This document shows positions 7,719 to 32,353 of a stretch of 64,000 nucleotides of DNA, in pieces; the stretch's first letter is position 1, and every line of letters starts with the position of its first letter. The stretch spans positions 1,842 through 65,841 of the forward strand of contig JAMOAW010000006.1 in NCBI GenBank assembly GCA_039908535.1, given 5' to 3'. The translations under genes and the position numbers were made by a program. The DNA is from Magnetococcus sp. DMHC-6. GTDB taxonomy: Bacteria; Pseudomonadota; Magnetococcia; Magnetococcales; JADFZT01. Under the pieces are notes generated by a model that was not told the origin of the DNA, made no database searches, and was given only the letters and a program-made list of their open reading frames with translations.

Positions 7719-8486
7719 ATGATCGATACCCATTGTCACCTCCATTTACCGGCCTTTGATACCGACCGCCAAGAGGTCTTGGCCCGCAGTCGCCAAGCGG
7801 GGGTGGACCAATGGGTGGTACCTGGCATACGCCTCAGCGATTTTCCACAACTGGTCGCCCGGCACGAAGAGGGCATTCATCTGGCGTTTGGATTACACCC
7901 TTTTTTTACCCAAGATCACCCCACAGATGGCCCCGATCAACTCATCAACTGGGTAAGGCAATACCACCCCCTGGCTATTGGAGAGATTGGCCTGGATTTT
8001 ATCGCTCCGCAAACAACACATCAAATGCAGTTGGCACTGTTCACCGAACAATTGCGTATTGCCGATCAATTTCACCTGCCGGTTTTGCTGCATGTACGCA
8101 AGGCCCACGATATTGTTCTGGGAGTGCTACGCCAACGCCCATTCCCTTTTGGCGGCATTGTCCATGCGTTTAGCGGCACCCTGCACCAAGCGCGCAGTTA
8201 TATTGAACTTGGATTTTGCCTGGGCTTTGGCGGTGTGGTCACCCGCGACAACGCCCGTCACCTGCGCGATCTCGTCCCCTTTTTGCCAGAGTCTGCCCTG
8301 GTGCTTGAAAGCGACGCCCCCGATCTGCCCCCCGCCGGACATCTTGGCGAACGCAACGAACCCTGCCATTTACCACTGGTTGCCCAAACCCTGGCCACCT
8401 TACGGAAGGTGCCAATCGAACACATGATCACCACCACCAGATTAAATGCCCAGAGAGTTCTTTGGTCGATCCATGGCATGACATGA
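7719..8486 (+). CDS. TatD-family metal-dependent hydrolase/DNase
   Basis: The N-terminus MIDTHCHLH is characteristic, and the conserved His/Asp pattern follows (GEIGLD, LHVRKAHD, GIVHAFSG, LESDAPD). Confidence 0.85.
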   Translation: MIDTHCHLHLPAFDTDRQEVLARSRQAGVDQWVVPGIRLSDFPQLVARHEEGIHLAFGLHPFFTQDHPTDGPDQLINWVRQYHPLAIGEIGLDFIAPQTTHQMQLALFTEQLRIADQFHLPVLLHVRKAHDIVLGVLRQRPFPFGGIVHAFSGTLHQARSYIELGFCLGFGGVVTRDNARHLRDLVPFLPESALVLESDAPDLPPAGHLGERNEPCHLPLVAQTLATLRKVPIEHMITTTRLNAQRVLWSIHGMT

Positions 8487-9217
8487 TTCATTCAGGATTA
8501 TTTGATCGAACCCATCTTTTGGTAGGGGATACAGGCATTGAAAAATTACAAGCCGCCCATGTTTTGCTCTGTGGGGTAGGAGGGGTGGGTAGTTTTGCCG
8601 CCGAAGCCCTAGGACGGGCGGGGATCGGTCGTCTGACGCTCATAGACCATGATATCGTTGCCCCCTCAAACCTCAACCGACAACTGCCAGCCACCCTGGA
8701 GACCATAGGAGAAAAAAAGATCGCCGTCCTCGGCCAACGCTTGGCCTCTATAAACCCCTTGTGTCAATTGGAACGAATCGATCAATTTTTAACCTCCGAC
8801 AACATCCCAAAAATTCTCGACCACACCCATCCGCACTGGGTATTGGATGCCATTGACTCTCTCAACAGCAAAGTAAGCCTGATTGTTGAATCCCACACCC
8901 GTGGCATCCCCATTGCTTGCAGCATGGGAGCTGGTGGACGACTGGATCCTACCCGTTTGATGGTAGGTGATTTAATGGACACCACCCTATGCCCTCTGGC
9001 GCGTGCTGTCCGCCACCGAGTTCGCAAACGGGGGCTTGGCCGTGGCATCCAGGCCGTCTGGTCATTAGAACCCCCGCACCCACCCTCCCCCGCTGAACCC
9101 ACCGACCAAGGACGGCCACGGGTCATCAACGGCACCATCAGCTACATGCCCGCGCTCTTTGGATTAACTTTGGCTGGAATCATTGTGCAGGGTATCTTGA
9201 GTTCACCGATCCCATAG
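8483..9217 (+). CDS. tcdA: tRNA threonylcarbamoyladenosine dehydratase (ThiF/E1-like)
   Basis: The sequence FDRTHLLVGDTGIEKLQAAHVLLCGVGGVGSFAAEALGRAGIGRLTLIDHDIVAPSNLNRQ matches TcdA/YgdL. The ATG at 8483 overlaps the tatD stop (ATGA). TTG 8462 is an alternative start. Confidence 0.8.
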   Translation: MIHSGLFDRTHLLVGDTGIEKLQAAHVLLCGVGGVGSFAAEALGRAGIGRLTLIDHDIVAPSNLNRQLPATLETIGEKKIAVLGQRLASINPLCQLERIDQFLTSDNIPKILDHTHPHWVLDAIDSLNSKVSLIVESHTRGIPIACSMGAGGRLDPTRLMVGDLMDTTLCPLARAVRHRVRKRGLGRGIQAVWSLEPPHPPSPAEPTDQGRPRVINGTISYMPALFGLTLAGIIVQGILSSPIP

Positions 9218-11285: not shown

Positions 11286-12197
11286 ATGAAACATATCTCG
11301 ACCAATATTCAAGCCCAAGACCTCCTCGATCAACTAGAATTGGCCGTCATAACGCATGAAGATTGGCTTGGAACACTCAATCGGGCGTTAATCTGTCAAA
11401 AGCCCGATTTAGTTCAACAATTTTGTTCGATAAACTCTCATAAAACGTGCCAGTTTGGGATATGGTTCGAGTCTATATTTTTTAAAAATAAACACGACAA
11501 CCAGATTATTTACGATATTGATTTAATTCATCAACGAATGCATGCCACGGCTCAATGGCTCATGGAGAAACTACAGCGCAAAGAGTCCATCTCTCCAGAA
11601 GCGTATGACGAATTGTTATTCAAAAGACTCGCTTTTCGGGGTCATGTTTCTATTTTAATCAATCAAATTTACGATATGCTTTTACAAACCGACCCCCTAA
11701 CCCGCGTTCTCAACCGTCAAAAAATGGTTCAAACCCTGGAAAGGGAGAAAGATTCCGCGCAAACCAAACCCATCATCCCGGCCATTACCCTGGCAGACAT
11801 AGATTTTTTTAAACACGTAAACGACACCTATGGCCATGCTGTCGGCGATCGAGTGTTAAAAATGGTGGCGCAAATTTTTATGTCGCATATGCGCCCTATG
11901 GATTTAATCTTTCGCTATGGCGGAGAAGAATTTCTTCTTTATATGCAAAGCATGGATATTCACACTGCTGCCAAAACCATTGATCGTCTGCGTCAAAAAC
12001 TCCTACAACACCCCTTTCAATTGGATAATGGAGAACAGCTCACCATTACGGCCTCTTTTGGTCTCTCTGTCCTGGACAGCGACCGCTCCATCCAAGAATC
12101 TATTGAAGAAGCCGACAAGGCCCTCTATCTTGCGAAAGAGCGCGGACGCAACCGAGTAGAAGGATTATATCACGAACAACAAATTTCTCCCTGCTGA
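11286..12197 (+). CDS. Diguanylate cyclase with N-terminal CZB-like (zinc-binding) sensor domain
   Basis: The GGDEF domain is present (RYGGEEFLL, DIDFFKHVNDTYGH). The N-terminus has CZB-type ligand spacing (HEDW, CQFGIW, HQRMH), as in DgcZ-like proteins. Confidence 0.8.
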   Translation: MKHISTNIQAQDLLDQLELAVITHEDWLGTLNRALICQKPDLVQQFCSINSHKTCQFGIWFESIFFKNKHDNQIIYDIDLIHQRMHATAQWLMEKLQRKESISPEAYDELLFKRLAFRGHVSILINQIYDMLLQTDPLTRVLNRQKMVQTLEREKDSAQTKPIIPAITLADIDFFKHVNDTYGHAVGDRVLKMVAQIFMSHMRPMDLIFRYGGEEFLLYMQSMDIHTAAKTIDRLRQKLLQHPFQLDNGEQLTITASFGLSVLDSDRSIQESIEEADKALYLAKERGRNRVEGLYHEQQISPC

Positions 12198-13468: not shown

Positions 13469-13972
13469 GTGAATATTCGTGTTTTAATTGATAACGTCCC
13501 AATTTTTCAATCCTTTTCCGAAATTCAAAAAAAACGGATTGCCAATCTCACCTATCTTTTTATTCGTTATGAAAAGGATGAAGTGATTCTCAAACAGTTC
13601 GAGTTGGACTCCTCGTTTTATATCCTCGTGCAGGGATCTGTTCGGGTTACCCGTGACGATCTTCCCGACAAAATAATTGCCAAACTCAAACCCGGCTCCA
13701 TTTTTGGTGAAATGGCCTACCTAACAGGAAAACCGCGTTCTACCCATGTCATCGCCCACGAACCCGAGACGATCGCCATGAAATTGGACCACAACAATAT
13801 GTTTCTTCTGCCTGCCAATGTACGCGACCGGATCAAGGATAGCCTCATTCATTTATTAGTTAACCGCATAAACCAAATGAACGACGCCTTGATCAGACGA
13901 ACAAAAAAAGATAGGATAGAAAAAAATGCACTTTCAGATGAACATATAGATCAACTTTTAATGGATTATTAA
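13469..13972 (+). CDS. Stand-alone cyclic-nucleotide-binding (CAP effector domain) protein
   Basis: GTG start. The cNMP phosphate-binding cassette FGEMAYLTGKPRSTHVIA is present. No output domain. Confidence 0.75.
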   Translation: MNIRVLIDNVPIFQSFSEIQKKRIANLTYLFIRYEKDEVILKQFELDSSFYILVQGSVRVTRDDLPDKIIAKLKPGSIFGEMAYLTGKPRSTHVIAHEPETIAMKLDHNNMFLLPANVRDRIKDSLIHLLVNRINQMNDALIRRTKKDRIEKNALSDEHIDQLLMDY

Positions 13973-14026: not shown

Positions 14027-16612
14027 ATGCAAACTAAACGCTCTTCCAAAAAAAATGCACCTCCTCCTATATTAAATCTGACCCTCCATGGACAGACACT
14101 TCTGGATAAAAACCAGTTTAAAGAGGCCATTGAAGTTTTTAAAAAATTGGCCAAGGAACAGCCAAACGCCTCCTGGCGGGAGCCGCTCATCAAGGCTTAT
14201 CGGGGACGAGCTTTGGAATTGGCGGAAAAATCCATGTTTAAAGAGGCTCTGGTCACCTTGGAAAACGAATCCCGAATCAGCGGTCTACCAATTCCCCTGG
14301 ATCTCATCCTCCCACTGGCGGTCAACACTGGAAGTATTGATAAACTTGCGCCATTTTTCAACTATCAGAAAGAGGCTTCTTCTCTCCCTCCTGCTCATTT
14401 GCTGGAGCCAATTCAATCCTTAATGGCCATCCTTGCCTTGGTGGGTGATTCAAAAATTGACAAAATTTTTCCCAAAAAGGATCTCCCTTTTTGGGACCAT
14501 TTAGCCCGCGCCCGTGAGGCATTAACCCTCTATGGAACGAATCAAGAGACATTATTGGATGGAGCCTTGGCCAAAATTCCAGCCCAATCCCCCTTTAAAC
14601 ATTTTCGTCTCTTTTTAAAGTCGCTCTCCCTGATAAACTCCCAACCGGAGAAGGCCACGGCCTTATTGGAGCGTATTCCACCCCACACCCCTTTTGCCGG
14701 TCCAGCTTCGGTTGTGCAGGTCTGTTCCTTTTCGGAACAACATCTCCCTATGGCCTTGGTCAACCTTGATACGGCGGCCCAATCTTGTGTTGCGACGCTG
14801 GTGGGAATAGACCCCAACAGCATATCGTTACTTAATAAACTTAACATCGCCTCTCGTTCCATTCCAAAATTATTTAGTTTTTTAATAGCCCATACCGAAC
14901 AACTGAACCTGGATTGGGTGCGAACCACTTGTTTAGAATTATTATCCATTTATCCCGAAGGCGTCCCTGCATTTGAAAAAAAATTTGGACCACTGGACCC
15001 TTTTCAAAAAAATAGATTTCTCGCCCTGAAGGCAGAGAAAAATCAAGATATTACGCAAGCCGAAAAATACTGGCTACAATGTATTTCTATTCTAAAGGCC
15101 AAGCCGAATATCACAGAGGATATTCCTCTCAAAATCGCTTTAATTTTACGTCATATTCATCCTTGGCAGGAGAATACACGTCGTCGGAGACGCTCCTTTT
15201 ATTTTAATTCCGATGAAGATCAACATGAACCTTTCTATTTTCTAGAACAAAGTCTTACCTACGACCCTGATGATCCAGAGGTTTGGATTGAGTTAATTCG
15301 CGGCGTTTTAGAAATTAAAGAAGAAAAAAGGGGCAATACCCTGCTCGAAAAGGCTCTCAAAATATTTCCAGACAACCCAGCCCTGCTGACCATAGCGGTG
15401 GAATTGGCACTCAAACGCCATACCTTTGTCAAGGCCGTGCGCCTAGCTGAAAAGCTGCTCCAAATAAATCCCATCAATCCGCACATTCGCCAACAAATTT
15501 TGAGGGCACAACTCTCTCAAGCCGAAAAACAGATCCATGTCAACCGCCTGGATCTGGCCAAAAAGGAGATTCAAAAGGCCGAAGCCATGGCGCGCAATGA
15601 GATCGACCGTGGCAATGTGCGTTTTTATCAAGGGGTGTTGGCCTTGAAACATGAGGAGATAAATTTGGGACTGGCTCTCATCCAGGAAGCCCGCAGTTTG
15701 GAGGGGGAGACCCCTTTTGCCTTTTACCGAATGTTTACCGATGCCAAAAGATTAGGTCTTCAAACGAAAATTATTCAACAATTACAGCAAGATCTCAGGA
15801 AAAAACTGCTAGATCCTCCACAAAAGCAGTTTATTTTAGACCTTATAAGCCAAATAGATATCCAGCTTCCAACCTCCCAAAAGAGAGGAGCGGACAATTT
15901 TATCCTGCTGGAAGATTATCTGACCAAAGGGGTTCCCTTAAATTTTACAATTCAAGAGAGACAATGGATCTGTCAACGCTTTTTCGAAGCCGATAGAGAT
16001 GTACTTCTTAAAAAATTTGCTTCAGAAGGGGAAAAGCAATGGCCGGAAATAGATTGTTTCTTTGTTTATCGACTCTATGTGCAATATCATGGACAATATG
16101 GTCGACACGCCATCCCTGCAGACCATATTCAAAGACTCGTACAGATCTACCATAAAGCAGAAGAAAAAATGGATCCAGATCACCTTTTGGATCCAATTGA
16201 AGAGATTCTTCCACCTAACTATCTTTATGAAGATGAGGATAAAGATGAGGATGAGGATGAAGATGATTCTCCATTTTTACCAAACGACATGCCTTTGCCC
16301 TGCGCTCCTGAAGAACTGGTACAAATGGTTTGTAATTTTATTCTTGAGAATGATTCCCCACCCAAAGATATAAATGATATGGAGAGATGGATCATAAATT
16401 TAATGATAAAAGTAGATCAATTACCCATATTTAAAAATATTCCCCCCCCCTTGAAAAGTATCATTCTCTTACAGGCTGTGGAGAAAATTCTCACATCGCA
16501 AGAGGCAACGAAACCACCCCCTTCGCGGCCAAAATCTCGCATGAAACCCAAGGAAATCCCCCAAAAATCAAATTCCGATCCCGACCAATTAAAACTGGAT
16601 TTCACTTCATGA
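14027..16612 (+). CDS. Large TPR-repeat protein with internal acidic tract (first gene of the Hsp70-like operon)
   Basis: 861 aa with repeated TPR-like helical hairpins (e.g. EAIEVFKKLAKEQPN, EKALKIFPDNPALL, AEKLLQINPINPH). An acidic run YEDEDKDEDEDEDD is present. The stop overlaps the next start (ATGA at 16609-16612). Confidence 0.7.
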   Translation: MQTKRSSKKNAPPPILNLTLHGQTLLDKNQFKEAIEVFKKLAKEQPNASWREPLIKAYRGRALELAEKSMFKEALVTLENESRISGLPIPLDLILPLAVNTGSIDKLAPFFNYQKEASSLPPAHLLEPIQSLMAILALVGDSKIDKIFPKKDLPFWDHLARAREALTLYGTNQETLLDGALAKIPAQSPFKHFRLFLKSLSLINSQPEKATALLERIPPHTPFAGPASVVQVCSFSEQHLPMALVNLDTAAQSCVATLVGIDPNSISLLNKLNIASRSIPKLFSFLIAHTEQLNLDWVRTTCLELLSIYPEGVPAFEKKFGPLDPFQKNRFLALKAEKNQDITQAEKYWLQCISILKAKPNITEDIPLKIALILRHIHPWQENTRRRRRSFYFNSDEDQHEPFYFLEQSLTYDPDDPEVWIELIRGVLEIKEEKRGNTLLEKALKIFPDNPALLTIAVELALKRHTFVKAVRLAEKLLQINPINPHIRQQILRAQLSQAEKQIHVNRLDLAKKEIQKAEAMARNEIDRGNVRFYQGVLALKHEEINLGLALIQEARSLEGETPFAFYRMFTDAKRLGLQTKIIQQLQQDLRKKLLDPPQKQFILDLISQIDIQLPTSQKRGADNFILLEDYLTKGVPLNFTIQERQWICQRFFEADRDVLLKKFASEGEKQWPEIDCFFVYRLYVQYHGQYGRHAIPADHIQRLVQIYHKAEEKMDPDHLLDPIEEILPPNYLYEDEDKDEDEDEDDSPFLPNDMPLPCAPEELVQMVCNFILENDSPPKDINDMERWIINLMIKVDQLPIFKNIPPPLKSIILLQAVEKILTSQEATKPPPSRPKSRMKPKEIPQKSNSDPDQLKLDFTS

Positions 16613-16950
16613 AAAACCCTTTTCAAATTTTAGATGTTCCAGTTCAAACCGATGATGAAACGGTTCGCAAAGCGTGGTTGAATCTGGTTCGTATCTATCC
16701 ACCGGAACGCGATCCAACTCGATTTCAGGAAATACGCACCGCCTATGAAGCGATAAAAACCTACCGGGATCGTTCGCGTTTTCATTTGTTTGAACCTTGC
16801 GAACCCGTACTGGAAAGCCTCATGAGACACGGTTTGAAACGTGCTCCTGTGAGGCCCCTTTCAGAAAAAATGATTTTGGATCTTCTTGGGGAATCCAGCC
16901 GCAACTGGCGGATGAGATGGTCACACAAAGGGAAGGATGAATCCTCATGA
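16609..16950 (+). CDS. J-domain-like protein with degenerate HPD (PPE)
   Basis: The sequence NPFQILDVPVQTDDETVRKAWLNLVRIYPPERDPTRFQEIRTAYEAI aligns to the J-domain helix II-loop-helix III. YHPDKNP corresponds to YPPERDP (codons at 16696-16713). ATGA overlaps at both ends. Confidence 0.65.
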   Translation: MKNPFQILDVPVQTDDETVRKAWLNLVRIYPPERDPTRFQEIRTAYEAIKTYRDRSRFHLFEPCEPVLESLMRHGLKRAPVRPLSEKMILDLLGESSRNWRMRWSHKGKDESS

Positions 16951-17609
16951 ATCGGGCGGATAAAGAGGTGTTAATCGACCAATTTCGTACCTATCTGGAG
17001 CAATGGGAATCTCCTGATCCTGCCGGTGAGTTACCTCCTGGGGATGAACGAACCGATCTTTATACCTTTTACATTGAACTGGCCGCCCTAAAAAACGAAG
17101 TTCGCATCGAATCCCGACAATTAAAAACGGCTTTGGACCAGTTTCGTGAGGTGTTTGAAACTTTAAATGCAAGCCATGACCAACTCCAAGAGTCTCTCAC
17201 CAGAGAGAAGACCGCCCGCATGGAGGCAGGTCGTCAAGCCATTCGTCCGCTTCTCCTAGAATTATTAGAACTGCGTGACCGGATGGAGGCGGCTTTGACG
17301 CCTCCTCCTGTGGTGATCAAGACCAATTTTTTTAATTTTAACTGGTTATGCCCCCCCCACCCCGATTCTGGGCAAGCCATTCGAGAAGGGATTCGTATGA
17401 ACCTGAGGCGTTTAGATCAGATATTGTCAGGCCAAGGAGTACAACCGATTGTCACTGTTGGTCAACCACTGGACCCTCACCATATGCGGGCGACAAACGT
17501 TGTCAACCGTTCCGATGTGGCCTCTGGAATTGTTGTTGAAGAGATTCGTAAAGGGTTTACCTGGGATGGTATCTTGGTACGTCCAGCTGAAGTCATTGTT
17601 AATCAATAA
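16947..17609 (+). CDS. GrpE-like nucleotide exchange factor
   Basis: A coiled-coil N-terminus is followed by the GrpE C-terminal signature (GQPLDPHHMRATNVV...GIVVEEIRKGFTWDGILVRPAEVIV). Confidence 0.75.
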   Translation: MNRADKEVLIDQFRTYLEQWESPDPAGELPPGDERTDLYTFYIELAALKNEVRIESRQLKTALDQFREVFETLNASHDQLQESLTREKTARMEAGRQAIRPLLLELLELRDRMEAALTPPPVVIKTNFFNFNWLCPPHPDSGQAIREGIRMNLRRLDQILSGQGVQPIVTVGQPLDPHHMRATNVVNRSDVASGIVVEEIRKGFTWDGILVRPAEVIVNQ

Positions 17610-17634
17610 TTTTATTTAATGGAGTCCATATAAA

Positions 17635-19428
17635 ATGCTTAACTCTGAGCCAATTATTGGTATTGATTTAGGAACCACCAACTCGGAAGTGGCCATCTAT
17701 TTGGAGGGCCGTACACAAGTATTACAAGACAGCGAAGGAAACCGATTGCTTCCTTCCTTTGTTGGTATTGATGAAAATGGCGGTGTTTTAGTGGGACATT
17801 CGGCGCGTAATCAATATATTGTCCATCCTGATCGGACGATTAAGTCGATCAAACGACGGATGGGCTCAACCGATAAAGTCTCTATGGCTGGCAAAGAGTA
17901 TTCTCCCCAAGAGATCTCTGGCATTATTTTAAAAAGGCTCAAAGGAATTGCCGAAACCACGCTTGGTCGACCGATTCACAAAGCGGTGATCACAGTACCC
18001 GCCTTCTTCTCCGATGCCCAGCGACAAGCCACCCGTGAGGCTGGAGAGATTGCTGGACTGGAAGTGGTACGCATGATCAACGAACCCACGGCAGCGGCTC
18101 TTGCATATGAAACAGGCAACCCGCAAAACAAAAAAATATTGGTCTATGATTTGGGAGGCGGCACCTTTGATGTCTCGGTGGTGCGGATTGAAAACGGGGT
18201 GGTGGAGGTTATTTCCAGCCATGGCGATAACCATCTGGGAGGAGATGACTTTGACGCCCTGATTTACAACCATCTGATTGCCCACTTAAAAGAGAAACAT
18301 GGTGTAGATCTAACCAACCAACCTAAAGCCATTGCCCGCCTTTTACGCTGTGCCGAAAATGCCAAAAAATCCCTTTCAGATCATCCGTTTATTCTCATTG
18401 AAGAAGAGTTTATCGCTCAAGGGGCTACCGGACCGATCCATCTCTCTTTGGAATTGGATCGCCACCTCTATGAAGAGATGATCACCCCATATATCGATAA
18501 AACCCTGGAGGCGGTTCATACGGCTTTGAACGGGGCCAACCTTGTTGCAAACCATATTGAACGCATTTTATTGGTTGGTGGGGCAACGCGAACACCTCTG
18601 GTGGCGCGAAGACTCGAAGAGGTGTTCGGTTTTTCCCCCAGCAGCGAGGTAGACCCAGACCTGTGCGTGGCCATGGGGGCGGCCATTCAAGCCGCTATGA
18701 TCGAAGGTCAACAGGTCTCTGCGGTCTTGGTAGATGTCACCCCTTACACCTTTGGAACCAGTGTCTTGGGAGAATTGGATGGCGAATACACCCCCAACCT
18801 ATTTGTCCCCGTTATTCGCAAAAACTCCTCTATTCCCATTTCTCGAAGTGAAGTTTTTTTTACCGTGTTGGATTATCAAGAGAGTGTGGAGGTCAATATA
18901 TTCCAAGGCGAACACCCAGATTGTCGGCAAAACATCCCACTGGGCCAATTTACGATCACTGGATTGAGCCACGTTCCGGCCCATAATCCCATTGTCTTGC
19001 AATTGGATCTTGATTTAAATGGCATTTTACATGTTACTGCCACAGAGAAAAAAACCGGTTTACACAAAAAAATCACCATTGAAAATGCTTTTGCCAAATT
19101 AGACGACTCACAATTAAACCAAGCCCGCCAGCGTATTGATGACCTCTTCGACGAAGAGGAGATGAATGAGGAGGAGATGAATGAAGAGGAGTCCAAGCCT
19201 AACAAAAAGCATGCCGACGATTCCCTTCGATCTGCACGATTGATTTCTAAAGCCAAGGCACTGATTGAAAAATCACAACGCTTTCTTGATCAAGCCGGAG
19301 AAGAGGATCGGGATGCGATGATCAATTTAATAGAAAATATACAAGATGCCATCACTTCTCACGACATAGAACGCTTGCAAACCAATTCCGATGAATTGGC
19401 CGATATTTTATTTTATCTGGAGACCTGA
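17635..19428 (+). CDS. Hsp70-family ATPase (DnaK-like paralogue, short lid)
   Basis: Nucleotide-binding motifs are [40 protein letters not shown] and [11 protein letters not shown]. The substrate-binding beta domain is [11 protein letters not shown]. At 597 aa it is shorter than the DnaK size I recall. It has an acidic C-terminal region, [14 protein letters not shown]. Confidence 0.9.
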
Positions 19429-20045
19429 TGGCGATGGTACAGTGTCCTGTTTGTCGTGCCCGACTGGAAGAAAGATCCATTTGTCGTCGTTGTGGAACCG
19501 ATTTTACGCCAGCACTGACCATGGCGCGCGAAAGCATGACAATGGCAGGACATGCTGTATATCATTTGATCCAAGGAGAGGTTGCGAATGCCGCGCTTTA
19601 TCTGCGCCGCGCCACCTTGATGCATGCGACTCCTTTTGTGTTGGCCCTGGAGACCTTTGTACAGAGCCTCTCTTCTTTACCTGTGGTTTCTTCCTCAGAA
19701 ATCCCTATAGAGGAGAGTTCTGGGGAAGAGCTTGCGGAAGAAGAGCTTGCGGAAGAAGAGCTTGCGGAGGAAGAGCTTGCGGAGGAAGAGCTTGCGGAGG
19801 AAGAGCTTGCGGAGGAAGAGCTTGCGGAAGAAGAGCTTGCGGAAGAAGAGCTTGCGGAGGAAGAGATTGCGGAGGAAGAGATTGCGGAGGAAGAGATTGC
19901 GGAGGAAGAGATTGCGGAGGAAGAGATTGCGGAGGAAGAGATTGCGGAGGAAGAAAAACTTTCAACCCATGGCACATTCATAAACAAAAAACACAAAAAA
20001 CACAAAAAACACAAAAATAAACAAAAAAACAAACACCACTTTTGA
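19428..20045 (+). CDS. Zinc-ribbon protein with (EELAE)9(EEIAE)6 acidic repeat and basic KHK tail
   Basis: The N-terminus is CPVCRARLEERSICRRCG (CxxC-x9-CxxC). The start overlaps the Hsp70 stop (TGATG). The repeat-encoded acidic region is followed by KKHKKHKKHKNKQKNKHH. Confidence 0.65.
   Translation: MAMVQCPVCRARLEERSICRRCGTDFTPALTMARESMTMAGHAVYHLIQGEVANAALYLRRATLMHATPFVLALETFVQSLSSLPVVSSSEIPIEESSGEELAEEELAEEELAEEELAEEELAEEELAEEELAEEELAEEELAEEEIAEEEIAEEEIAEEEIAEEEIAEEEIAEEEKLSTHGTFINKKHKKHKKHKNKQKNKHHF
19725..19949 (+). repeat. 15-bp tandem repeat x15 (gaagagCttgcggaR x9 then gaagagAttgcggag x6)
   Basis: Counted directly in the sequence. The array is in frame with the CDS at 19428-20045 and generates spurious long ORFs in three other frames. 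Confidence 0.95.
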
Positions 20046-20207: not shown

Positions 20208-21242
20208 CTAATTTATATTAATGTTAAAATCAAACAGCTCTTCTAGAGAACGGGCATCCAGAACAAGGTCGCTCCAAAGTTCTAGGGTTTCCATATCGGC
20301 TGTACTGACCTTCTCTTGAATATTGGAAGGTAAAGAGCCGAAACGGCGAGTCAATAGGCGGAGAAGCATGTCGGCTTTACCTCTCTGCTCGCCAATCTGC
20401 AGGCCTCTCTGCTCGCCAATCTGCAGGCCTCTCTGCTCGCCAATCTGCAGGCCTCTCTGCTCGCCAATCTGCAGGCCTTCCCATTTACCAGCACCATAGG
20501 TGGAGAGCACAAAACTTGCTTGGTCATGCAGCTCTTCCTGATAGCGTTCGTAAGCCTTTCGTTCTGTCTCTGGCAATTGCAGGAGATCGAATTTTTCTTT
20601 GGCTTTTTTTAGTCCACGAGCAGTAAAATCATCACGAATATCAGAATTTTTCAGAAAATAGATCCACTCATCCAGGGTGTTGCGGGCGACATCATCGAAA
20701 TTTCTTACCTTGATAAGGTAATGCTCAGGGAAAATAGCGGCTACCGAAGGGCGTTGAAACAAGGCTTTCTGCCCCTCGTCCAAAGCCAATTCTTCTTGGG
20801 TGTGCACCCCCTTAAAAGAGGTATTGCCGACATAGACATAATCACGACCACGCCCCAGATCAAAATAGAGAATGCTGATGGTGATAACCTTGACAACGCT
20901 GGCGTAAGGCTTGCCCTCTGTCATGTGTTCGGTGATGGCCTTGGCGGTACTAAAGAGTAACCGCTGCAGGTAGTCCCACTCACGTTCATATTGCAACTCG
21001 ACAATGACGATTTCATCCCGTGTGTTTTTGATCTTAAGATCAACACGATTAAATTTGTCGTTACGGGATTCCTTATTGCTTTCACTTTCCAGGATTTCAA
21101 CGATACGCATATCCTCGCGCAGGAGTTCACTGAGGAACCCTTCCAAAATTTCGAAGTTGGCCTTGCTGCGCAGCAGGCGTTTCAAGGCCCAGTCGAAGCT
21201 AATCAACCGTCGTTGCGGCATGTTGAAAAAATCTCCATTCAT
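20208..21242 (-). CDS. Rpn-family / PD-(D/E)XK nuclease-like putative transposase with DUF4351-like C-terminus
   Basis: The N-terminus is ISFDWALKRLLRSKANFEILEGFLSELL...RVDLKIKNTRDEIVIVELQYE (a D...ExQ nuclease core). The C-terminus is ADMLLRLLTRRFGSLPSNIQEKVSTADMETLELWSD. It contains 4 tandem LQIGEQRG units. Confidence 0.75.
   Translation of the reverse strand: MNGDFFNMPQRRLISFDWALKRLLRSKANFEILEGFLSELLREDMRIVEILESESNKESRNDKFNRVDLKIKNTRDEIVIVELQYEREWDYLQRLLFSTAKAITEHMTEGKPYASVVKVITISILYFDLGRGRDYVYVGNTSFKGVHTQEELALDEGQKALFQRPSVAAIFPEHYLIKVRNFDDVARNTLDEWIYFLKNSDIRDDFTARGLKKAKEKFDLLQLPETERKAYERYQEELHDQASFVLSTYGAGKWEGLQIGEQRGLQIGEQRGLQIGEQRGLQIGEQRGKADMLLRLLTRRFGSLPSNIQEKVSTADMETLELWSDLVLDARSLEELFDFNININ
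20380..20475. repeat. 24-bp perfect tandem repeat x4 (cctctctgctcgccaatctgcagg)
   Basis: Counted directly. It encodes (LQIGEQRG)4 on the minus strand inside the Rpn-like CDS. Confidence 0.95.
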
Positions 21243-21972: not shown

Positions 21973-22911
21973 ATGTTTTTCACAATGAAAGTAAACACAC
22001 CTATGACTTGGCTTTGGTTTTTTCCACTTTTGATCCTTTTCACCTTTAGTTTGGTCTTTTCCCCTCTGTTTACCAACAAGGGTAGACTACCGCTACCTAT
22101 TGGACGTGAACCAGTCGGAAAAGAAAAAACATCACAATGGGATCTAAAAAATCGCAAAGATACCTTATTAAGACAAATAAAAGAACTAGAATATGAATTG
22201 GCAGCTGGCAACCTAGAAGCGTTGGAGGGTCAAAATCAACGTCAAGAACTGGAACAAGAGCTGATAGGCCTTTTAAAAGAATTGGATCATGCACCCAATA
22301 ATAATTCAACCTCTAAAGGAGATAAAAAACTCAGTTTAGAGAGCCAACGGCCTTTAGATATCGCTTCTGGTGTAGCGGTTATGGTTTTAGTAGCCATGGT
22401 AAGCTCAGGTCTTTATCTGGCCCTCGGCACCCCGGAACTGGTCCCAAGTCCCAAAGCCGAAATGGGCGCCAATCTCCACGATATGGAAGGAAAAATCGCT
22501 GGATTGGCAGATCGTTTAAAAAACGAGCCTGACAACCTCTCTGGTTGGATGCAGTTGGGAAAAACATATGCCGTCATGGGGCGGACCCCCGAAGCAATTT
22601 TGGCATTCGAACACATTTTATCTCGCCAACCAAACGACTTGGAAGCAGCAGTTTTGCTAGGCGAAAATCGTATTCGCGATGACCGACCTGGACAATTACA
22701 AAAAGGACTGGAGCTTTTTCAACAAATTCTTGCCAAAAATCCCGAACGACCAGAACCCTATTGGTTTTTGGGTGCCCTTGCTCTCCGGGCTGGAGAACGT
22801 GATAAAGCCATTGAATTATGGGAAAAACTTGCAAAAATTTTACCTGTGAGCGATCCTGCCCAGGCCACTGTCCAAGAAGCACTCAAAAACGCCCGTTCAG
22901 GCACCCCATAG
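21973..22911 (+). CDS. ccmI: c-type cytochrome biogenesis protein CcmI (CycH)-like
   Basis: The topology is TM1, then a charged coiled-coil loop (LRQIKELEYELAAGNLEALEG...), then TM2, then periplasmic TPRs (LSGWMQLGKTYAVMGRTPEAILAFEHILSRQPND). The start may be 21988. Confidence 0.6.
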   Translation: MFFTMKVNTPMTWLWFFPLLILFTFSLVFSPLFTNKGRLPLPIGREPVGKEKTSQWDLKNRKDTLLRQIKELEYELAAGNLEALEGQNQRQELEQELIGLLKELDHAPNNNSTSKGDKKLSLESQRPLDIASGVAVMVLVAMVSSGLYLALGTPELVPSPKAEMGANLHDMEGKIAGLADRLKNEPDNLSGWMQLGKTYAVMGRTPEAILAFEHILSRQPNDLEAAVLLGENRIRDDRPGQLQKGLELFQQILAKNPERPEPYWFLGALALRAGERDKAIELWEKLAKILPVSDPAQATVQEALKNARSGTP

Positions 22912-22958: not shown

Positions 22959-25022
22959 ATGAAAAAATTATTCCGCCGATACGATCTTATTTTTACCGTT
23001 TTACTGTTTATTTTGGCCGTACCGGCGGAATATTATGAAATTTTTTCCCTACTAGAGGATCAAACCATCTCCTTTAGACATATTTTTCGTATGCACTATG
23101 GCAACAAAGACGATACCACCTTTTCCAAGGAGATCGTCTTGGTCAATACCGATGAAGCATTTTTCCAAGAGTATGGCAGCTATCCCCTACGCCGAACAGA
23201 CATTGGAAAAATTGCCGAAAATTTGCATACATTAGGGGCAAAAGTTGTTGCTCTGGATATTTTAATGGATTTTCCAAGCTCCTATGGTGAAGACCCGATC
23301 ATTGCTAAATCTTTAGCCACCATTGGCCGCCCTCTTTTGGTCTCCCAAGCAGAATTTAAGGGGAATCAATTTATTAAACTCAATCCACCAACGCCCGTTT
23401 TAAATGCCGTTGTCGAGACGGGCTATTCTAATATCAGCTCTTCCAGTGCGGTTGTCACCACGCTCTCCAAACTGCGCATCTATCCAGAAGTGGCAGAAAA
23501 AGGAGGATGGCCCTTTGCGATCAAGGCCCTTGCACTCTATTGGAACTTGGAACCAACTTTTGAAGGTCAACATCTCACTCTGGGAAAGATGATGACCATT
23601 CCACTAGATCAGTTTAACAATCTCTATATTGATTTTCCCTCACTCCCCAGTGGAATACATTATTTAAGCGAAGTTGCTGGACTCTCTGCCATGGAGTTTC
23701 TGGATATTTCTGACCTAGACGACAATGAATTAAACGAACTCAGTTATTGGGTCAAAGATAAAATCGTTTTGTTGGGCGACACCTCAGAGGTATCACATGA
23801 CTGGTTTGATACTCCAGTTGGAATGGTTTATGGAGTTGAAATTATTGCCGATACCATCCACACCATACTGAAAGGATGCCCTCTACGCCCGGCCCCTCTG
23901 TCGATGGAAGTTTTACTGAGTGGGACCTTTATGCTGACCATCATTTTTACCGGACGAATCTCTCACCCCTCGCTGCGCGCCCTCATAGCCACTCTCTTTA
24001 TACTAACCTATATCACGGCACTCACCTGGGCCTATGTTCAAATTGGCCTGGTTATCTCTATGGTTTACACTCTTTTGGCGGGGGTGATCAGTTTTCTGGC
24101 TATCAGTCTACGCTATTATTTAATGGTGATGGGTCAGAAACATCTCATTCAAAATGCCTTTGGTCAATATCTTTCTCCAAAAGTAGTTGATATTTTGGTT
24201 AAAGATCCAAGCAAGCTCACCTTGGGTGGTGAACAACGGGAGATGACCGCGCTTTTTTCTGATGTTGCTGGTTTTTCAAGCATCTCCGAAAATCTTACAC
24301 CAAAGGAGTTGGTCCATCTCCTCAACGAATACCTCACGGCCATGTGTAATATTATCGCCCGCCACCATGGCACCATAGATAAATTTGAAGGGGATGCCAT
24401 TATTGCCTTTTGGGGAGCCCCGATTGATCAAGCCGATCATGCCAAACTCGCCTGCTTGGCCTGTATCGACATGCAAAAAGAGATGCATCACATGCGCAAT
24501 CGGCTTAAGGAGGCCAATCGACCTGCCATGCACATCCGCATTGGCTTGAATTCTGGTCCTATGGTCGTCGGAAACATGGGCTCAGCCCAACGCATGGATT
24601 ATACCATTATGGGGGACGCAGTTAATTTAGCCGCCCGTTTAGAGGGTGCCAATAAATTTTATGGTTCCGATACACTTATTTCAGAAACAACATATAAGCT
24701 GGCTCAAGAGGTTATTGATGTACGCCAATTGGACACCGTGCGTGTCGTTGGCAAACGCGAAGCGGTGACCATTTATCAATTGCTGGACCGCAAAAATCAG
24801 GTCTCAGGAACCATGGCGGAGATGTTGGTCTACTATGAAAAAGGGTTAACTGCCTATCAAAACATGGATTTTTCTCAAGCTTTGCTATTTTTTCAAACAG
24901 CACTGAAAATTTTACCAACAGATGGTCCATGTCAAACCTATGTAGATCGTTGTCAGCAGTTTTTATTAACACCTCCTGATCATCACTGGGATGGCGTGTT
25001 CCAATTGACCTCTAAAGGTTGA
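22959..25022 (+). CDS. CHASE2-sensor class III adenylate/guanylate cyclase with C-terminal TPR-like region
   Basis: An N-terminal TM helix and an extracytoplasmic CHASE2-like domain are followed by 3 TM helices. The cyclase core is FSDVAGFSSISE...IDKFEGDAIIAFWGAP...GLNSGPMVVGNMGS...YTIMGDAVNLAARLE. Confidence 0.85.
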   Translation: MKKLFRRYDLIFTVLLFILAVPAEYYEIFSLLEDQTISFRHIFRMHYGNKDDTTFSKEIVLVNTDEAFFQEYGSYPLRRTDIGKIAENLHTLGAKVVALDILMDFPSSYGEDPIIAKSLATIGRPLLVSQAEFKGNQFIKLNPPTPVLNAVVETGYSNISSSSAVVTTLSKLRIYPEVAEKGGWPFAIKALALYWNLEPTFEGQHLTLGKMMTIPLDQFNNLYIDFPSLPSGIHYLSEVAGLSAMEFLDISDLDDNELNELSYWVKDKIVLLGDTSEVSHDWFDTPVGMVYGVEIIADTIHTILKGCPLRPAPLSMEVLLSGTFMLTIIFTGRISHPSLRALIATLFILTYITALTWAYVQIGLVISMVYTLLAGVISFLAISLRYYLMVMGQKHLIQNAFGQYLSPKVVDILVKDPSKLTLGGEQREMTALFSDVAGFSSISENLTPKELVHLLNEYLTAMCNIIARHHGTIDKFEGDAIIAFWGAPIDQADHAKLACLACIDMQKEMHHMRNRLKEANRPAMHIRIGLNSGPMVVGNMGSAQRMDYTIMGDAVNLAARLEGANKFYGSDTLISETTYKLAQEVIDVRQLDTVRVVGKREAVTIYQLLDRKNQVSGTMAEMLVYYEKGLTAYQNMDFSQALLFFQTALKILPTDGPCQTYVDRCQQFLLTPPDHHWDGVFQLTSKG

Positions 25023-25122: not shown

Positions 25123-25208
25123 GCCCAGGTGGCGGAATGGTAGACGCGCTAGATTCAGGTTCTAGTGGCTGCAAGGTCGTGGAAGTTCAAGTCTTCTCCT
25201 GGGCACCA
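25123..25208 (+). tRNA. tRNA-Leu (anticodon CAG), class II with long variable arm, CCA encoded
   Basis: Manual fold. Acceptor stem is GCCCAGG/CCTGGGC and D stem is GCG/CGC. Anticodon stem is CTAGA/TCTAG with loop TTCAGGT. The variable arm is long. T stem is GGAAG/CTTCT with loop TTCAAGT. The 3' end is ACCA. Confidence 0.9.
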
Positions 25209-26388: not shown

Positions 26389-28689
26389 ATGTTTAGGCTG
26401 CTCCGTTATTATTCCATCACCAGTTTTATCGCCACCGGGTTGATTGCCCTCTCATTGGTTTTTTTCTTTGGCTATCTGGTTCGGCACTCATTGCTCCATT
26501 TAGGCGAAAAACAAAATGTAGCGATGACGCGGGCATTCAGCAATGCTTTATGGCCTATATTAGAGGGATTATTAGACCCAGAATTGGGCTCTATCGACCG
26601 CCGCTCCTTAGGAGTACACCCTTTAATTCCTATTTTGGATCGCCAATTGCGTCTGATTATGGAAAACTTGGAGGTGATGGAGATAAAAATTTATTCCCCC
26701 CAGGGCATGACAGTTTACGCCACCCATTTAAATCAAATCGGTCAAAAACACAGTGGAAATTCCGCTTTTAAACGGGCCGTGCAGGGAGAAGTCGTAAGTT
26801 CCATGGCCCTTCGGCCTGATGTCTCCTCTTTGGAGGGGGTGATCGAAGATCGCCATTTGATCGAAAGTCTTGTTCCCTTGAATCGAGGGGGAAAAATTCT
26901 TGGGGTATTTGAACTGTACTACGACATCTCAACGGTGTTGGATCACATCAGCTCCGCTCAAACTCGAATGGTGGCAGGGGTGGGAGGACTTTTTTTAATC
27001 CTCTATTTTACCTTATTTGGCCTCGTTCGGCGCGCAGATCGGATTATTGCCCAACAAAATGGACAACTACAAGAGTATTTAGCTCAAATCACTGAGATCA
27101 ATGCCTCGTTGGAACAACGCGTAGAGGATCGGACCGAAACCCTCAATATTACCAATCAGGTCCTCAAAGAGGAAATCATTGAGCGACAAATTGCCGAGGC
27201 AGAGTTGACCAAACTGTCCAGAGCTGTCGAGCAAAGCCCGGCCTCAGTCTTGATCACCGATACTGAAGGACGAATTGAATATGTCAATCCCACCTTTCAA
27301 CGGGTGAGCGGATACTCTTTGGAAGAGGTCGTTGGCAAAAATCCCAAGATTTTAAAATCAGGAAAAGTAGCGGCTCAAGATTATGAACAATTATGGACCT
27401 CCATCCAAAATGGCCATGAGTGGCGCGGAGAGTTGCTCAACCGCAAAAAAAATGGCGAACTTTTTTGGGAGTTGGCCTCTATCTCCCCCATTCGCAACCG
27501 TCTCGGTCGCATTACCCATTTTGTAGCGGTCAAAGAGGATATTACCAATCGCAAACAGGCCGAAGAGCGTTTACAACGCAGTGAGGCACGTTTGCGTAGT
27601 ATTATGGATAACGTGATGGAAGGCATTTTATCGATTCAAAAAGAGGGCTCCATCGAATCGGTCAATCCCTCTATGCAGCGCATATTTGGATATACCGATG
27701 CCGAAATGGTGGGTGCCCATGTGGGACAATTTTTAGGAGAACCATTTATTTATATACAAAAAAATCGGATGGCGCGCTATCTTTCGTTTCACGCCCGCAA
27801 GCGCAGTTTTATCGATACAGAAATTCGTGCCGATCGCAAAGATGGCAGCAAAGTTCCTCTGGAGGTGACGTTAATTGATGTACAATCCCCCAGTGGCATT
27901 CACTATATCGCCACCATTCGAGATATCAGTGAACGTAAAAAAGCCGAAAAAGAGCTGGAAGAGGCCCGCAGAAGTTATTACCATCAAGAAAAAATGGCCT
28001 CTATTGGAACCCTTGCCGCTGGGATTGTCCATGAAATTGGCAATCCAATCACAGCCATTTCCGGTTTAATTGAAGCCTTGCGCGACTCTTTGGACAATTT
28101 AGGTACCGAAGATGCCTCTTTATTAAACATGATTGATGAACAGGTTCGACGTCTGACCAGCCTGATTCGCGATGTGCGGGAGTTTTCTATGCCCCAATCC
28201 GATGAGATGGACCTCCTGGTCATCAACGATCTGGTGGGGGCCTGCGTTCGTTTAATGCGTTTTGACAAACGGACCCGCAACATTAATATTCTCTTGCAAC
28301 TTGGACAAAAAATTCCGGCCATTTCAGGCTCTGGCAATCAATTACGGCAGGTGATCATTAATTTATTGATCAATGCTTCCGACGCCTTAGAGGGAATTGA
28401 AGGACGCAAACCAGAAGTGGTATTGGCAACCCAAGTGCTGGATGGTAAATTACTCTTGACGGTCACCGATAATGGCATTGGTATGGATCCCAAAACACGG
28501 GATCAAGCTTTTGATGCCTTTTTTACCACAAAGCCAGTCGGCAAAGGAACTGGTCTTGGACTTTCCCTTTGTTATTCAATAATTGCCAAGCATGGGGGCA
28601 CAATGGAAATTGAATCTGAACTGGGTAAAGGAACAACATTAAAAATACTTCTTCCCATTTTAGAACTAAAAGAGAGCCATGAGGCATAA
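26389..28689 (+). CDS. Sensor histidine kinase (2 TM + extracytoplasmic domain, 2 PAS, HisKA, HATPase_c)
   Basis: PAS motifs are present (ITDTEGRIEYVNPTFQRVSGYS; SIESVNPSMQRIFGYT). The H-box is GIVHEIGNPITAI. The N/G boxes are LINASDAL and GTGLGLSL. Confidence 0.85.
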   Translation: MFRLLRYYSITSFIATGLIALSLVFFFGYLVRHSLLHLGEKQNVAMTRAFSNALWPILEGLLDPELGSIDRRSLGVHPLIPILDRQLRLIMENLEVMEIKIYSPQGMTVYATHLNQIGQKHSGNSAFKRAVQGEVVSSMALRPDVSSLEGVIEDRHLIESLVPLNRGGKILGVFELYYDISTVLDHISSAQTRMVAGVGGLFLILYFTLFGLVRRADRIIAQQNGQLQEYLAQITEINASLEQRVEDRTETLNITNQVLKEEIIERQIAEAELTKLSRAVEQSPASVLITDTEGRIEYVNPTFQRVSGYSLEEVVGKNPKILKSGKVAAQDYEQLWTSIQNGHEWRGELLNRKKNGELFWELASISPIRNRLGRITHFVAVKEDITNRKQAEERLQRSEARLRSIMDNVMEGILSIQKEGSIESVNPSMQRIFGYTDAEMVGAHVGQFLGEPFIYIQKNRMARYLSFHARKRSFIDTEIRADRKDGSKVPLEVTLIDVQSPSGIHYIATIRDISERKKAEKELEEARRSYYHQEKMASIGTLAAGIVHEIGNPITAISGLIEALRDSLDNLGTEDASLLNMIDEQVRRLTSLIRDVREFSMPQSDEMDLLVINDLVGACVRLMRFDKRTRNINILLQLGQKIPAISGSGNQLRQVIINLLINASDALEGIEGRKPEVVLATQVLDGKLLLTVTDNGIGMDPKTRDQAFDAFFTTKPVGKGTGLGLSLCYSIIAKHGGTMEIESELGKGTTLKILLPILELKESHEA

Positions 28690-28691
28690 CC

Positions 28692-30104: not shown

Positions 30105-30203
30105 AAGAAAAAATTTTGCGATACGCAAAAAACTTTTTCTGATCATCCGTTTAGAAAAACAATGGTATCTTTTTATTGGTTTAATATAGTCTTAGGAGCG
30201 AAA

Positions 30204-30857: not shown

Positions 30858-31213
30858 GAATTTCAATTTGGGCTTTTTTAATCTCTCTAGCTATTTTTTG
30901 GGTTGGCTCTGGAATTTTTATTCCTCCAGCTTGGAGCCAGTCCACGACAAAAGAGATTGGGCCTGGTTTAAAAACGGGTAAACAAAACTATGCGCAATAT
31001 TGTGCCAGATGCCATGGTGCGACTGGACGCGGAAGCATGGCCGGTGTCCCAGATTTAAGTTGGCGCGGCGGAAAAGCCAATGGATTGGGTCAATTTGAAG
31101 AACACCTGCAAAACCGCATTTTGGCGGGTGGCAAGCTTTGTCCAGCCTATCAGGGTATTTTGACCAGTGATGAAGTTCGGGATGTTATACACTTTTTGAG
31201 AATGCTGCCATAA
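30854..31213 (+). CDS. Monoheme class I cytochrome c, secreted
   Basis: The TTG start overlaps the Sel1 stop. A signal peptide is present. There is a single CARCH motif, with a distal Met candidate in the C-terminal region. Confidence 0.7.
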   Translation: MRISIWAFLISLAIFWVGSGIFIPPAWSQSTTKEIGPGLKTGKQNYAQYCARCHGATGRGSMAGVPDLSWRGGKANGLGQFEEHLQNRILAGGKLCPAYQGILTSDEVRDVIHFLRMLP

Positions 31214-32340: not shown

Positions 32341-32353
32341 AAAGGAGAGTGAT

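Follow-up and report, generated by a model that had tools for sequence, protein, structure and literature searches.

A conserved five-gene cassette of Magnetococcus sp. DMHC-6 encoding a putative accessory Hsp70 system with a large tetratricopeptide-repeat protein

Bacterial Hsp70 chaperones have been reviewed as three types, DnaK, HscA, and HscC (PMC8215388), plus unclassified 'derivatives' (PMC8215388; PMC13580251), and in that three-type framing only DnaK uses an exchange factor (PMC8215388). The hallmarks of HscC are an insertion of 4-8 amino acids (aa) in loop L1,2, a deletion in helix B, a deletion in lobe I, and a length of 550-580 aa (Mayer review, PMC8215388). J-domains need the triad HPD or, rarely, HPE, and the HPE type makes up about 1% of all J-domains, with DjlB and DjlC among them (PMC10410713). 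Here, we analyzed a stretch of 64,000 nucleotides (nt) from Magnetococcus sp. DMHC-6 (contig JAMOAW010000006.1, positions 1,842 to 65,841, hereafter the window), in which five genes encode a tetratricopeptide-repeat (TPR) scaffold protein, a J-like protein, a GrpE-like protein, an Hsp70 paralogue, and a small zinc-ribbon protein, and we found that they form a real, tightly packed operon for what would be a second, specialized Hsp70 machine. Judged from the 64-kb window and from loci of ±8-10 kb in other genomes, it would be an accessory Hsp70 system that works beside the housekeeping DnaK, and its closest known relative appears to be E. coli HscC with DjlB and DjlC. The original prediction for this locus had offered a client-dedicated chaperone machine or a sensing or conflict module. 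We also favor the former, and it is probable that the cassette specifies a client-dedicated cytoplasmic Hsp70 machine, assembled on the TPR scaffold and built from an HscC-like Hsp70, a private GrpE, and a J-like protein that lacks the histidine of the triad.

The coordinates of the five open reading frames (ORFs) were re-read, and all agreed with the prediction of genes packed on one strand, whose stop and start codons overlap as ATGA at 16609-16612 (TPR/J) and 16947-16950 (J/GrpE) and as TGATG at 19426-19430 (Hsp70/zinc-ribbon), with a 25-nt gap carrying GGAG before the Hsp70 gene (Table 1). A species scan of one genome per species (185,579 genomes), with the GrpE-like alignment as the query, found GrpE-like relatives in 268 species genomes (0.14%), and the locus comparison covered the best 80 of these 268 species matches, in which genes were recovered by tblastn and ORF extension over ±8-10 kb per locus. 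Conserved synteny elsewhere had been set beforehand as a test that could refute the prediction, and we found it in several phyla: the order TPR, J-like, GrpE-like, Hsp70, zinc-ribbon was complete in 56 loci, and the first four genes were present in 65 loci. Because the same order recurs in 56 independent loci, with scaffold protein identities of only 22-39%, the five-gene arrangement goes far beyond chance. The genes are also close together throughout, with median intergenic distances along the cassette of 1.5, 6, 5, and -1 nt across loci (the third of these, between the GrpE-like and Hsp70 genes, is 25 nt in the window), and the zinc-ribbon start overlapped the Hsp70 stop in 37/61 loci. A word-based homologue search with the TPR protein returned 8 relatives only, and each carrying contig had the order TPR, J, GrpE, Hsp70; when the scaffold profile was searched exhaustively by HMMER, 647 clusters (50% identity) were found at E≤1e-30, of which the best 150 were all near full-length. 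The fifth gene was annotated in locus L001 and present in L007 as an uncalled GTG ORF, and a search with the zinc-ribbon family gave 268 clusters with new carriers in Methylococcaceae, Sedimenticola, and one planctomycete.

The main carriers among the best 80 were Competibacteraceae including Contendobacter and Competibacter, Beggiatoaceae (Thiomargarita, Thioploca, Parabeggiatoa, Marithrix), and Magnetococcales, and further carriers were Chromatiales-like gammaproteobacteria including the cultured Thiorhodococcus minor DSM 11518 (WP_164454419-WP_164454423), Nitrococcus, Thiogranum, and Granulosicoccaceae. Some Burkholderiales and Desulfobacterota (Desulfobulbales included) were also among the carriers, and the full cassette was found in two Methylobacter genomes (GCA_000383855.1 and GCA_000746145.1). 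Clustering of about 1,000 flanking ORFs revealed no sixth conserved gene; the recurrent flanks were lineage-specific housekeeping genes (M16 peptidase, sugar dehydratase, exonuclease III, ComB, cytochrome bc1), and flank synteny was conserved among the Competibacteraceae loci. The names given by the NCBI annotation pipeline (PGAP) were 'tetratricopeptide repeat protein', 'J domain-containing protein', 'nucleotide exchange factor GrpE', 'Hsp70 family protein', and 'hypothetical protein'.

We compared 62 complete Hsp70 family members with DnaK, HscA, and HscC of E. coli K-12 (EcDnaK, EcHscA, EcHscC) and with Geobacillus DnaK (GkDnaK). Family members shared 36.7-41.9% identity with EcDnaK (~39%), 44-50% with Geobacillus DnaK, ~35% with EcHscA, and ~34.5% with EcHscC, and 51-97% with each other across phyla; the best PDB match was also Geobacillus DnaK. 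The Hsp70 missed the NCBIfam DnaK equivalogs (PRK00290, 557.8 versus a cut-off of 648; TIGR02350, 547.1 versus 822.55) as well as the HscA equivalog TIGR01991 (429 versus 708.55), and no isc genes were found in the cassette flanks, unlike what the HscA/HscB Fe-S system, with its isc/fdx neighbors, would show. The alignment showed intact ATPase motifs, an intact VLVDVTP linker, and an intact GrpE-signature loop, and a residue that we take to be the equivalent of R167 was conserved. Thus the ATPase part of the predicted motif set stood, and the part that concerned substrate binding did not, as these features are not all canonical: all 62 Hsp70s carry an insertion of 8-9 aa in loop L1,2 of the beta part of the substrate-binding domain, at the site of the DnaK 'IETMGG' arch (eight residues, aa 380-387, in the window protein). 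We propose that the remodeled loop narrows substrate specificity. Beyond the insertion, the PAPRGMPQIEV segment is shorter by one residue and lid helix B by 4 aa, and the proteobacterial segment in lobe I of the nucleotide-binding domain (NBD) is absent from the cassette Hsp70s, the gammaproteobacterial ones included. The Hsp70 ends at the last lid helix without a disordered tail (family lengths 576-611 aa), so that the lid described before as short is better read from the alignment as a lid of the HscC type. Its extreme end is [FY][YF][LMI][ED]x-COOH, and not EEVD-COOH, in 61/62 Hsp70s, with FYLES occurring 27 times and three added residues in the lone exception.

Most of these departures from DnaK are shared with HscC; neither this kinship nor the Hsp70 C-terminal motif nor the TPR half of the zinc-ribbon protein figured in the original prediction. 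Both have the L1,2 insertion at the same site (8-9 aa in the cassette), the one-residue PAPRGMPQIEV deletion, P-Y in the linker region, the 4-aa deletion in lid helix B, and the deletion in NBD lobe I, and the cassette Hsp70, at about 580 aa and without a disordered tail, ends at the same alignment position as HscC. Moreover, the family consensus equals the HscC-unique residue at 8 positions, versus 2 for HscA. Unlike HscC, which is thought to be independent of nucleotide-exchange factors, the cassette Hsp70 keeps the GrpE-signature loop, which is deleted in HscA and HscC, and GrpE is co-encoded in every locus; the HscC locus also differs in gene order and lacks the extra zinc-ribbon/TPR gene. 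In the E. coli hscC locus (L089, K-12 676000-688000; ybeQRSTUV-hscC) we observed the Sel1 genes ybeQ and ybeT and the DUF1266 genes ybeR and ybeU, and stop/start overlaps couple ybeR to djlB and ybeU to djlC, which parallels the TPR-J coupling of the cassette. Alignment of the scaffold by hhalign with E. coli YbeU (DUF1266) and with DjlC revealed no homology.

The J-like protein had been predicted to lack HPD and the GrpE-like protein to be intact, and both statements were borne out. The window J-like protein has PPE in place of HPD, and among 73 full-length homologues the triad was PPE in 59, SPE in 6, PPD in 3, PAE in 3, APD in 1, and SPD in 1, with His in 0/73. Its Pfam DnaJ score of 27.3 bits is slightly under the cut-off of 27.8, and E. 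coli DjlB and DjlC also score under this cut-off. By BLASTP the J-like protein was 38% identical to the J-domain of DjlC without gaps, and 28% identical to DnaJ with a 6-aa gap; the short J-domain loop is common to the J-like family and to DjlB and DjlC, which carry HPE. The J-like family thus resembles DjlB and DjlC in its short-loop J subtype and, mostly, in the Glu at the third triad position, and differs from them in the missing His (PPE versus HPE) and in its build, as DjlB and DjlC each have about 480 aa and a tail anchor and the cassette protein is soluble and about 100 aa long. The family spans 97-123 aa without a G/F, zinc-finger, C-terminal, or transmembrane region, and the peak 19-residue hydropathy was 0.19 for the J-like protein versus 1.99 for DjlC. 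Indeed, no transmembrane segment was found in any of the five window proteins. The GrpE-like protein matched Pfam GrpE over the full profile (positions 11-165 of 165) with 85 bits (cut-off 25.8), and missed all NCBIfam GrpE equivalogs (best 53.8 versus 137). Its C-terminal beta-domain is canonical, and it has a family-specific amphipathic N-terminal helix in which L9, F13, and L17 are invariant.

The scaffold was predicted as an unbroken all-alpha solenoid of about 44 helices by AlphaFold2 (AF2; model from a 9-sequence alignment, predicted local distance difference test (pLDDT) 78), with a basic loop (aa 387-398), an acidic loop (aa 735-759), and the tail (aa 827-861) as disordered parts. Near-invariant residues in the aa 400-520 block include K468, K469, D481, P482, R500, and K501. 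Foldseek matched the scaffold only with long TPR proteins that organize multi-subunit complexes (Ctr9, Ski3, IFT-A, APC/C subunits, Naa15, TTC7B; template-modeling scores 0.15-0.25), and PDB sequences, when searched with profiles of the TPR and zinc-ribbon families, returned generic TPR or ribbon matches only. Four Cys and one Arg (R21) of the fifth protein are invariant (RCPxC...CxRC) in both a 46-sequence and a 61-sequence alignment, and the AF2 model of this protein (61 sequences, pLDDT 87) consists of a zinc ribbon followed by three helices that form a 1.5-repeat TPR; these helices superimpose on HOP TPR2A and on the Hip middle domain with 0.8 Å root-mean-square deviation over about 51 residues (Foldseek). 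A Hep1/Zim17 identity of this protein found no support, as the model is a C4 ribbon with three TPR-like helices and no Zim17/Hep1 was among the top 50 Foldseek matches. In a Magnetococcales metagenome-assembled genome (L047, 3289-4008) the zinc-ribbon/TPR protein carries, as a fusion, a C-terminal HD_4-like domain (RelA/SpoT-type HD; Pfam 21 bits, sub-threshold).

Acidic tracts are present in three of the five window proteins, as the original prediction stated, and its proposal that the TPR protein docks onto acidic tails found no support. The tract of the fifth protein occurs in the window protein only, together with a basic KKHK tail, and typical homologues have 80-95 aa; the (EELAE)9(EEIAE)6 tract is a lineage-specific expansion outside the conserved system. 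The acidic insert of the Hsp70 falls between lid helices, within a linker that varies, and the region of the scaffold acidic loop is net-acidic (≥5) in 25/48 homologues and basic and Pro/Met-rich in Competibacteraceae. Since the acidic tracts are window-specific or variable, acidic-tail recognition is not the conserved logic of the system. The disordered scaffold loop (aa 728-765, window 16208-16321) is F/P/D/G-rich in many homologues, for example NPFDIFGDDDD, and of a basic PMPMPMP type in Competibacteraceae; the F/P/D/G-rich form recalls the DIF motif of the DnaJ G/F region.

As a docking element, the conserved Hsp70 C-terminus appears to be a better candidate than the acidic tracts. Eukaryotic TPR co-chaperones (Hop/Sti1, CHIP, Hip) bind the EEVD-COOH tail of Hsp70, and the cassette is similar in that its TPR proteins are encoded beside an Hsp70 whose extreme C-terminus is strictly conserved and in that conserved basic residues line the best-conserved scaffold TPRs. 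It is unlike the eukaryotic EEVD systems in that the motif [FY][YF]LE[ST] has aromatic and aliphatic residues with one acidic residue, and in that it forms the end of a lid helix instead of belonging to a flexible tail.

Taken together, we presume that the motor of the client-dedicated machine would be an ATPase-competent Hsp70 paralogue with an HscC-type lid and a remodeled L1,2 loop, which would still depend on nucleotide exchange and be reset by the co-encoded, co-evolving GrpE paralogue. The 800-860-aa TPR solenoid would be the assembly platform, and the J-like protein, whose gene is in translational coupling with that of the scaffold, would tether or position the Hsp70 there, with ATPase stimulation that may be weak or conditional at most. 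The Hsp70 C-terminus [FY][YF]LE[ST]-COOH, the zinc-ribbon/1.5-TPR protein, or both could add contacts for docking or client selection; client selection would come from the scaffold and the zinc-ribbon/TPR protein, and the complex would remodel, assemble, or disassemble one or a few specific clients encoded elsewhere. The family-specific elements are under purifying selection, as the His-less triad (73/73), the C-terminal motif (61/62), the GrpE-like N-terminal helix, and the four Cys are conserved.

Several points weigh against this reading. Productive ATPase coupling is uncertain because the J-like protein lacks the His of HPD, which is essential in canonical J-domains, and the J-like protein could even be inhibitory. 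The kinship with HscC is drawn from indels and from a small number of positions shared with one HscC sequence, and the identity to a Gram-positive DnaK (47%, GkDnaK) exceeds that to HscC (34.5%). In the alignment, the Hsp70 C-terminus falls where the last lid helix of DnaK ends, so that its conservation may reflect lid packing and not docking. Foldseek matched the zinc-ribbon/TPR module with Hop and Hip at E-values that were not significant, and the patchy spread (0.14% of species) would also fit an accessory or a transferable function.

Other dedicated Hsp70 systems resemble the cassette in part. The mitochondrial import motor combines mtHsp70, the exchange factor Mge1, the HPD-less Pam16, the HPD-bearing Pam18, and the small zinc partner Zim17/Hep1; the cassette is alike by analogy only, with a dedicated Hsp70, a GrpE-type factor, an HPD-less J-like protein, and a small zinc protein, and differs in having no membrane segment, no Pam18 equivalent, and a zinc protein made of a C4 ribbon and a TPR. 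Among bacteria, cyanobacterial DnaK1/DnaJ3 is a specialized DnaK paralogue system that links type IV pili to polysaccharide secretion (PMC9239167), and Myxococcus DnaK2 (SglK) has its own upstream GrpE in the bicistronic GrpS-DnaK2 operon (PMC11019930). These are likewise accessory DnaK-type Hsp70s dedicated to one cellular process; by their descriptions, a TPR scaffold, an HPD-less J-like protein, and a zinc-ribbon gene are unreported there. No description of the cassette was found in the literature searched, one survey of bacterial J-domain proteins lying outside that search.

Tentatively, and with more doubt than we attach to the dedicated machine itself, the cassette may stand for a fourth bacterial Hsp70 class, related to HscC, dependent on GrpE, equipped with a His-less J protein, recognized by TPR proteins through [FY][YF]LE[ST]-COOH, and dedicated to a particular client or structure in metabolically complex bacteria. 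If true, bacteria would have arrived independently at the eukaryote-style coupling of TPR co-chaperones to the Hsp70 tail. The cassette would add an HscC-like Hsp70 with a private GrpE, a J-like protein under strong selection for a His-less triad, and co-chaperone-like TPR partners to what is described, and could inform the role of E. coli HscC/DjlB/DjlC and of the adjoining Sel1 and DUF1266 genes. Its hosts have ecological and technological weight, such as wastewater-plant Competibacteraceae, which accumulate glycogen, methanotrophs, giant sulfur bacteria, and magnetotactic bacteria, and cultured hosts exist (Methylobacter, Thiorhodococcus minor), which makes these questions directly testable.

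Three other explanations were weighed against the client-dedicated machine. The one that survives best, though we regard it as unlikely, is a regulatory switch, as opposed to a folding machine, in which the Hsp70 sequesters and releases a signaling or transcription factor, much as DnaK reversibly sequesters sigma-32, and the zinc-ribbon/TPR protein is the target or a redox or metal sensor. The invariant C4 zinc site could sense redox state or metal, the overlap of the zinc-ribbon start with the Hsp70 stop in many loci suggests a fixed stoichiometry, one genome has the zinc-ribbon protein fused to an HD_4-like domain, and the neighborhood in the window is dense in signaling genes. The HD fusion, however, is a single case below the Pfam threshold, and none of the window signaling genes is conserved beside the cassette in other loci. 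Moreover, no DNA-binding, sigma, or anti-sigma domain was detected in the cassette proteins, and a simple sequestration switch needs no 800-aa scaffold.

Still less probable is a chaperone-based biological-conflict (anti-phage or abortive) system sensu Kaur et al. 2020, in which the Hsp70/GrpE pair sets the threshold of an effector or senses invader proteins. Hsp70 and GrpE with DnaJ- or TPR-fused partners are one theme of the GAP1-N2 GTPase conflict systems (Kaur et al. 2020, PMC7159879), and the cassette likewise co-encodes an Hsp70 with GrpE and with J-domain and TPR partners. In favor of such a system, the spread is patchy with a preference for large, filamentous, or multicellular bacteria, the TPR protein has a weak, sub-threshold EAD1 match (Pfam), and defense-type neighbors exist at a few loci, namely SNF2 helicases in L007, a type I restriction R subunit just downstream in L047, and, directly upstream of the cassette in L003 (719-9437), two NACHT-FGE-sulfatase proteins with a diversity-generating retroelement (bAvd, reverse transcriptase). 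Unlike the GAP1-N2 systems, which belong to actinobacteria and firmicutes, the cassette belongs to Pseudomonadota and Desulfobacterota and lacks a GTPase, an FNIII-repeat protein, and a second, NBD-only Hsp70; no GTPase or other sixth gene was conserved, and no FNIII domain was detected by Pfam. No effector domain (nuclease, protease, TIR, pore-former) was found by Pfam in the five conserved proteins, PADLOC gave no match for four proteins and one marginal match (E=9e-4) on the repeat region of the fifth, and defense models matched a handful of 97 flanking ORFs, including three added deliberately. In addition, the flanks are housekeeping genes of conserved synteny within Competibacteraceae, tblastn of the GrpE-like protein against plasmid and phage collections gave no match, and the 51-97% identity of the Hsp70s across phyla indicates purifying and not diversifying selection. 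The conflict option of the original prediction therefore finds little support.

That the cassette is the organism's own housekeeping DnaK/DnaJ/GrpE in an unusual arrangement is, judged from the window and the ±8-10-kb loci, effectively excluded: its Hsp70 is full-length and has every catalytic motif, its GrpE domain is bona fide, and the 64-kb window contains no other dnaK, but the Hsp70 is below the NCBIfam DnaK equivalogs and is named 'Hsp70 family protein' and not DnaK by PGAP, the GrpE-like protein is far below the GrpE equivalogs, the gammaproteobacterial cassette Hsp70s have only ~39% identity to E. coli DnaK and no proteobacterial NBD segment, the J-like protein has neither HPD nor the G/F, zinc-finger, and C-terminal domains, no clear sigma-32 promoter enrichment was seen upstream (by a crude consensus test of 61 loci), and the cassette occurs in 0.14% of species versus dnaK in 98.9% of bacteria (PMC11019930). 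This agrees with the earlier statement that the locus is not the housekeeping grpE-dnaK-dnaJ arrangement, given the sub-cut-off Hsp70, its ~39% identity to EcDnaK, and the lack of DnaJ within 8 kb; neither the 64-kb window nor the surrounding 8-10 kb of any locus contained an EcDnaJ-like gene or a second Hsp70. In the promoter test, the sigma-32 consensus (≤2 mismatches) occurred in 4/61 upstream regions versus 2.05 in shuffles, and no enrichment of the sigma-54 consensus was found upstream of the 61 loci. The cassette and the housekeeping set share three folds, with the ATPase motifs, the linker, the GrpE-binding loop, and the GrpE C-terminal beta-domain conserved, and they differ in the added TPR and zinc-ribbon genes and in the remodeled substrate-binding loop of the Hsp70. 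ORFs at 30162-34102 were considered as a canonical grpE/dnaJ/dnaK set and rejected, as they encode Sel1 and Reg_prop proteins.

Table 1. Positions of the cassette genes and of their main features in the window.
Feature	Position	Strand	Evidence and remarks
TPR scaffold protein	14027-16612	+	861 aa ORF; Pfam TPR_19/TPR_14
Most conserved scaffold block, aa 400-520	15224-15586	+	Family alignment
Acidic disordered scaffold loop, aa 735-759, YEDEDKDEDEDEDD	16229-16303	+	pLDDT <50
J-like protein	16609-16950	+	113 aa ORF; Pfam DnaJ 27.3 bits; tail of ~45 aa after the J domain
PPE triad of J-like protein (HPD position)	16699-16707	+	Sequence
GrpE-like nucleotide-exchange factor	16947-17609	+	220 aa ORF; Pfam GrpE 85 bits
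Spacer, 25 nt, with GGAG	17610-17634	+	Read from sequence; likely ribosome-binding site of the Hsp70 gene
Hsp70 paralogue	17635-19428	+	597 aa ORF; Pfam HSP70 517.7 bits
Hsp70 loop L1,2 insertion, 8 aa, aa 380-387	18772-18795	+	Alignment
Hsp70 C-terminal motif FYLET-COOH	19411-19425	+	Sequence
Zinc-ribbon/TPR small protein	19428-20045	+	205 aa ORF; no Pfam family
C4 zinc ribbon, C6/C9/C19/C22 of fifth protein	19443-19493	+	Family alignment
Three-helix 1.5-repeat TPR module of fifth protein, aa 27-82	19506-19673	+	AF2 model
15-bp tandem repeat in frame, 15.4 copies, (EELAE)9(EEIAE)6	19724-19954	+	Tandem Repeats Finder (TRF), 97% matches

A lone GrpE-like gene was observed in six loci (L048, L052, L053, L058, L060, and L076; match at about 8001-8645 in most) from Thioploca, Marithrix, Halobeggiatoa, and Thiotrichales HSG1; the TPR, J, and Hsp70 genes were absent within 8 kb and the flanks varied by genome, so that in these genomes the cassette is either dispersed or partly lost. 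In some Beggiatoaceae (L034, L043, L057, and L067) gaps of 200-700 nt separate cassette genes that are contiguous elsewhere. One contig labeled Phycisphaerales (L009) was the only planctomycete-labeled locus of the 80, and its flanks cluster with those of Competibacteraceae loci; the label may be a binning error and not a distant host.

Simple promoter and terminator scans of the window gave nothing informative, an exact-sequence look-up of the window Hsp70 returned no record, and the sole find of the Rfam and tRNA scans of the window was a tRNA-Leu at 25123-25208. The surroundings of the cassette in the window are rich in signaling genes: a GGDEF protein is located at 11286-12197 and a cyclic-nucleotide (cNMP)-binding protein at 13469-13972, 54 nt upstream of the cassette, and downstream there are a CcmH-like TPR protein (21973-22911), a CHASE2-cyclase (22959-25022), a PAS histidine kinase with a sigma-54 activator (26389-30104), and the Sel1/Reg_prop proteins (30162-34102). 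On the reverse strand at 20208-21242 we observed a PD-(D/E)XK Rpn-type transposase-like protein with DUF4351, in which a perfect in-frame 24-bp tandem repeat of 4.1 copies (20380-20478) encodes GLQIGEQR four times. Together with the 15-bp and 9-bp repeats of the zinc-ribbon gene, this 24-bp repeat suggests that the genome is prone to in-frame repeat expansion.

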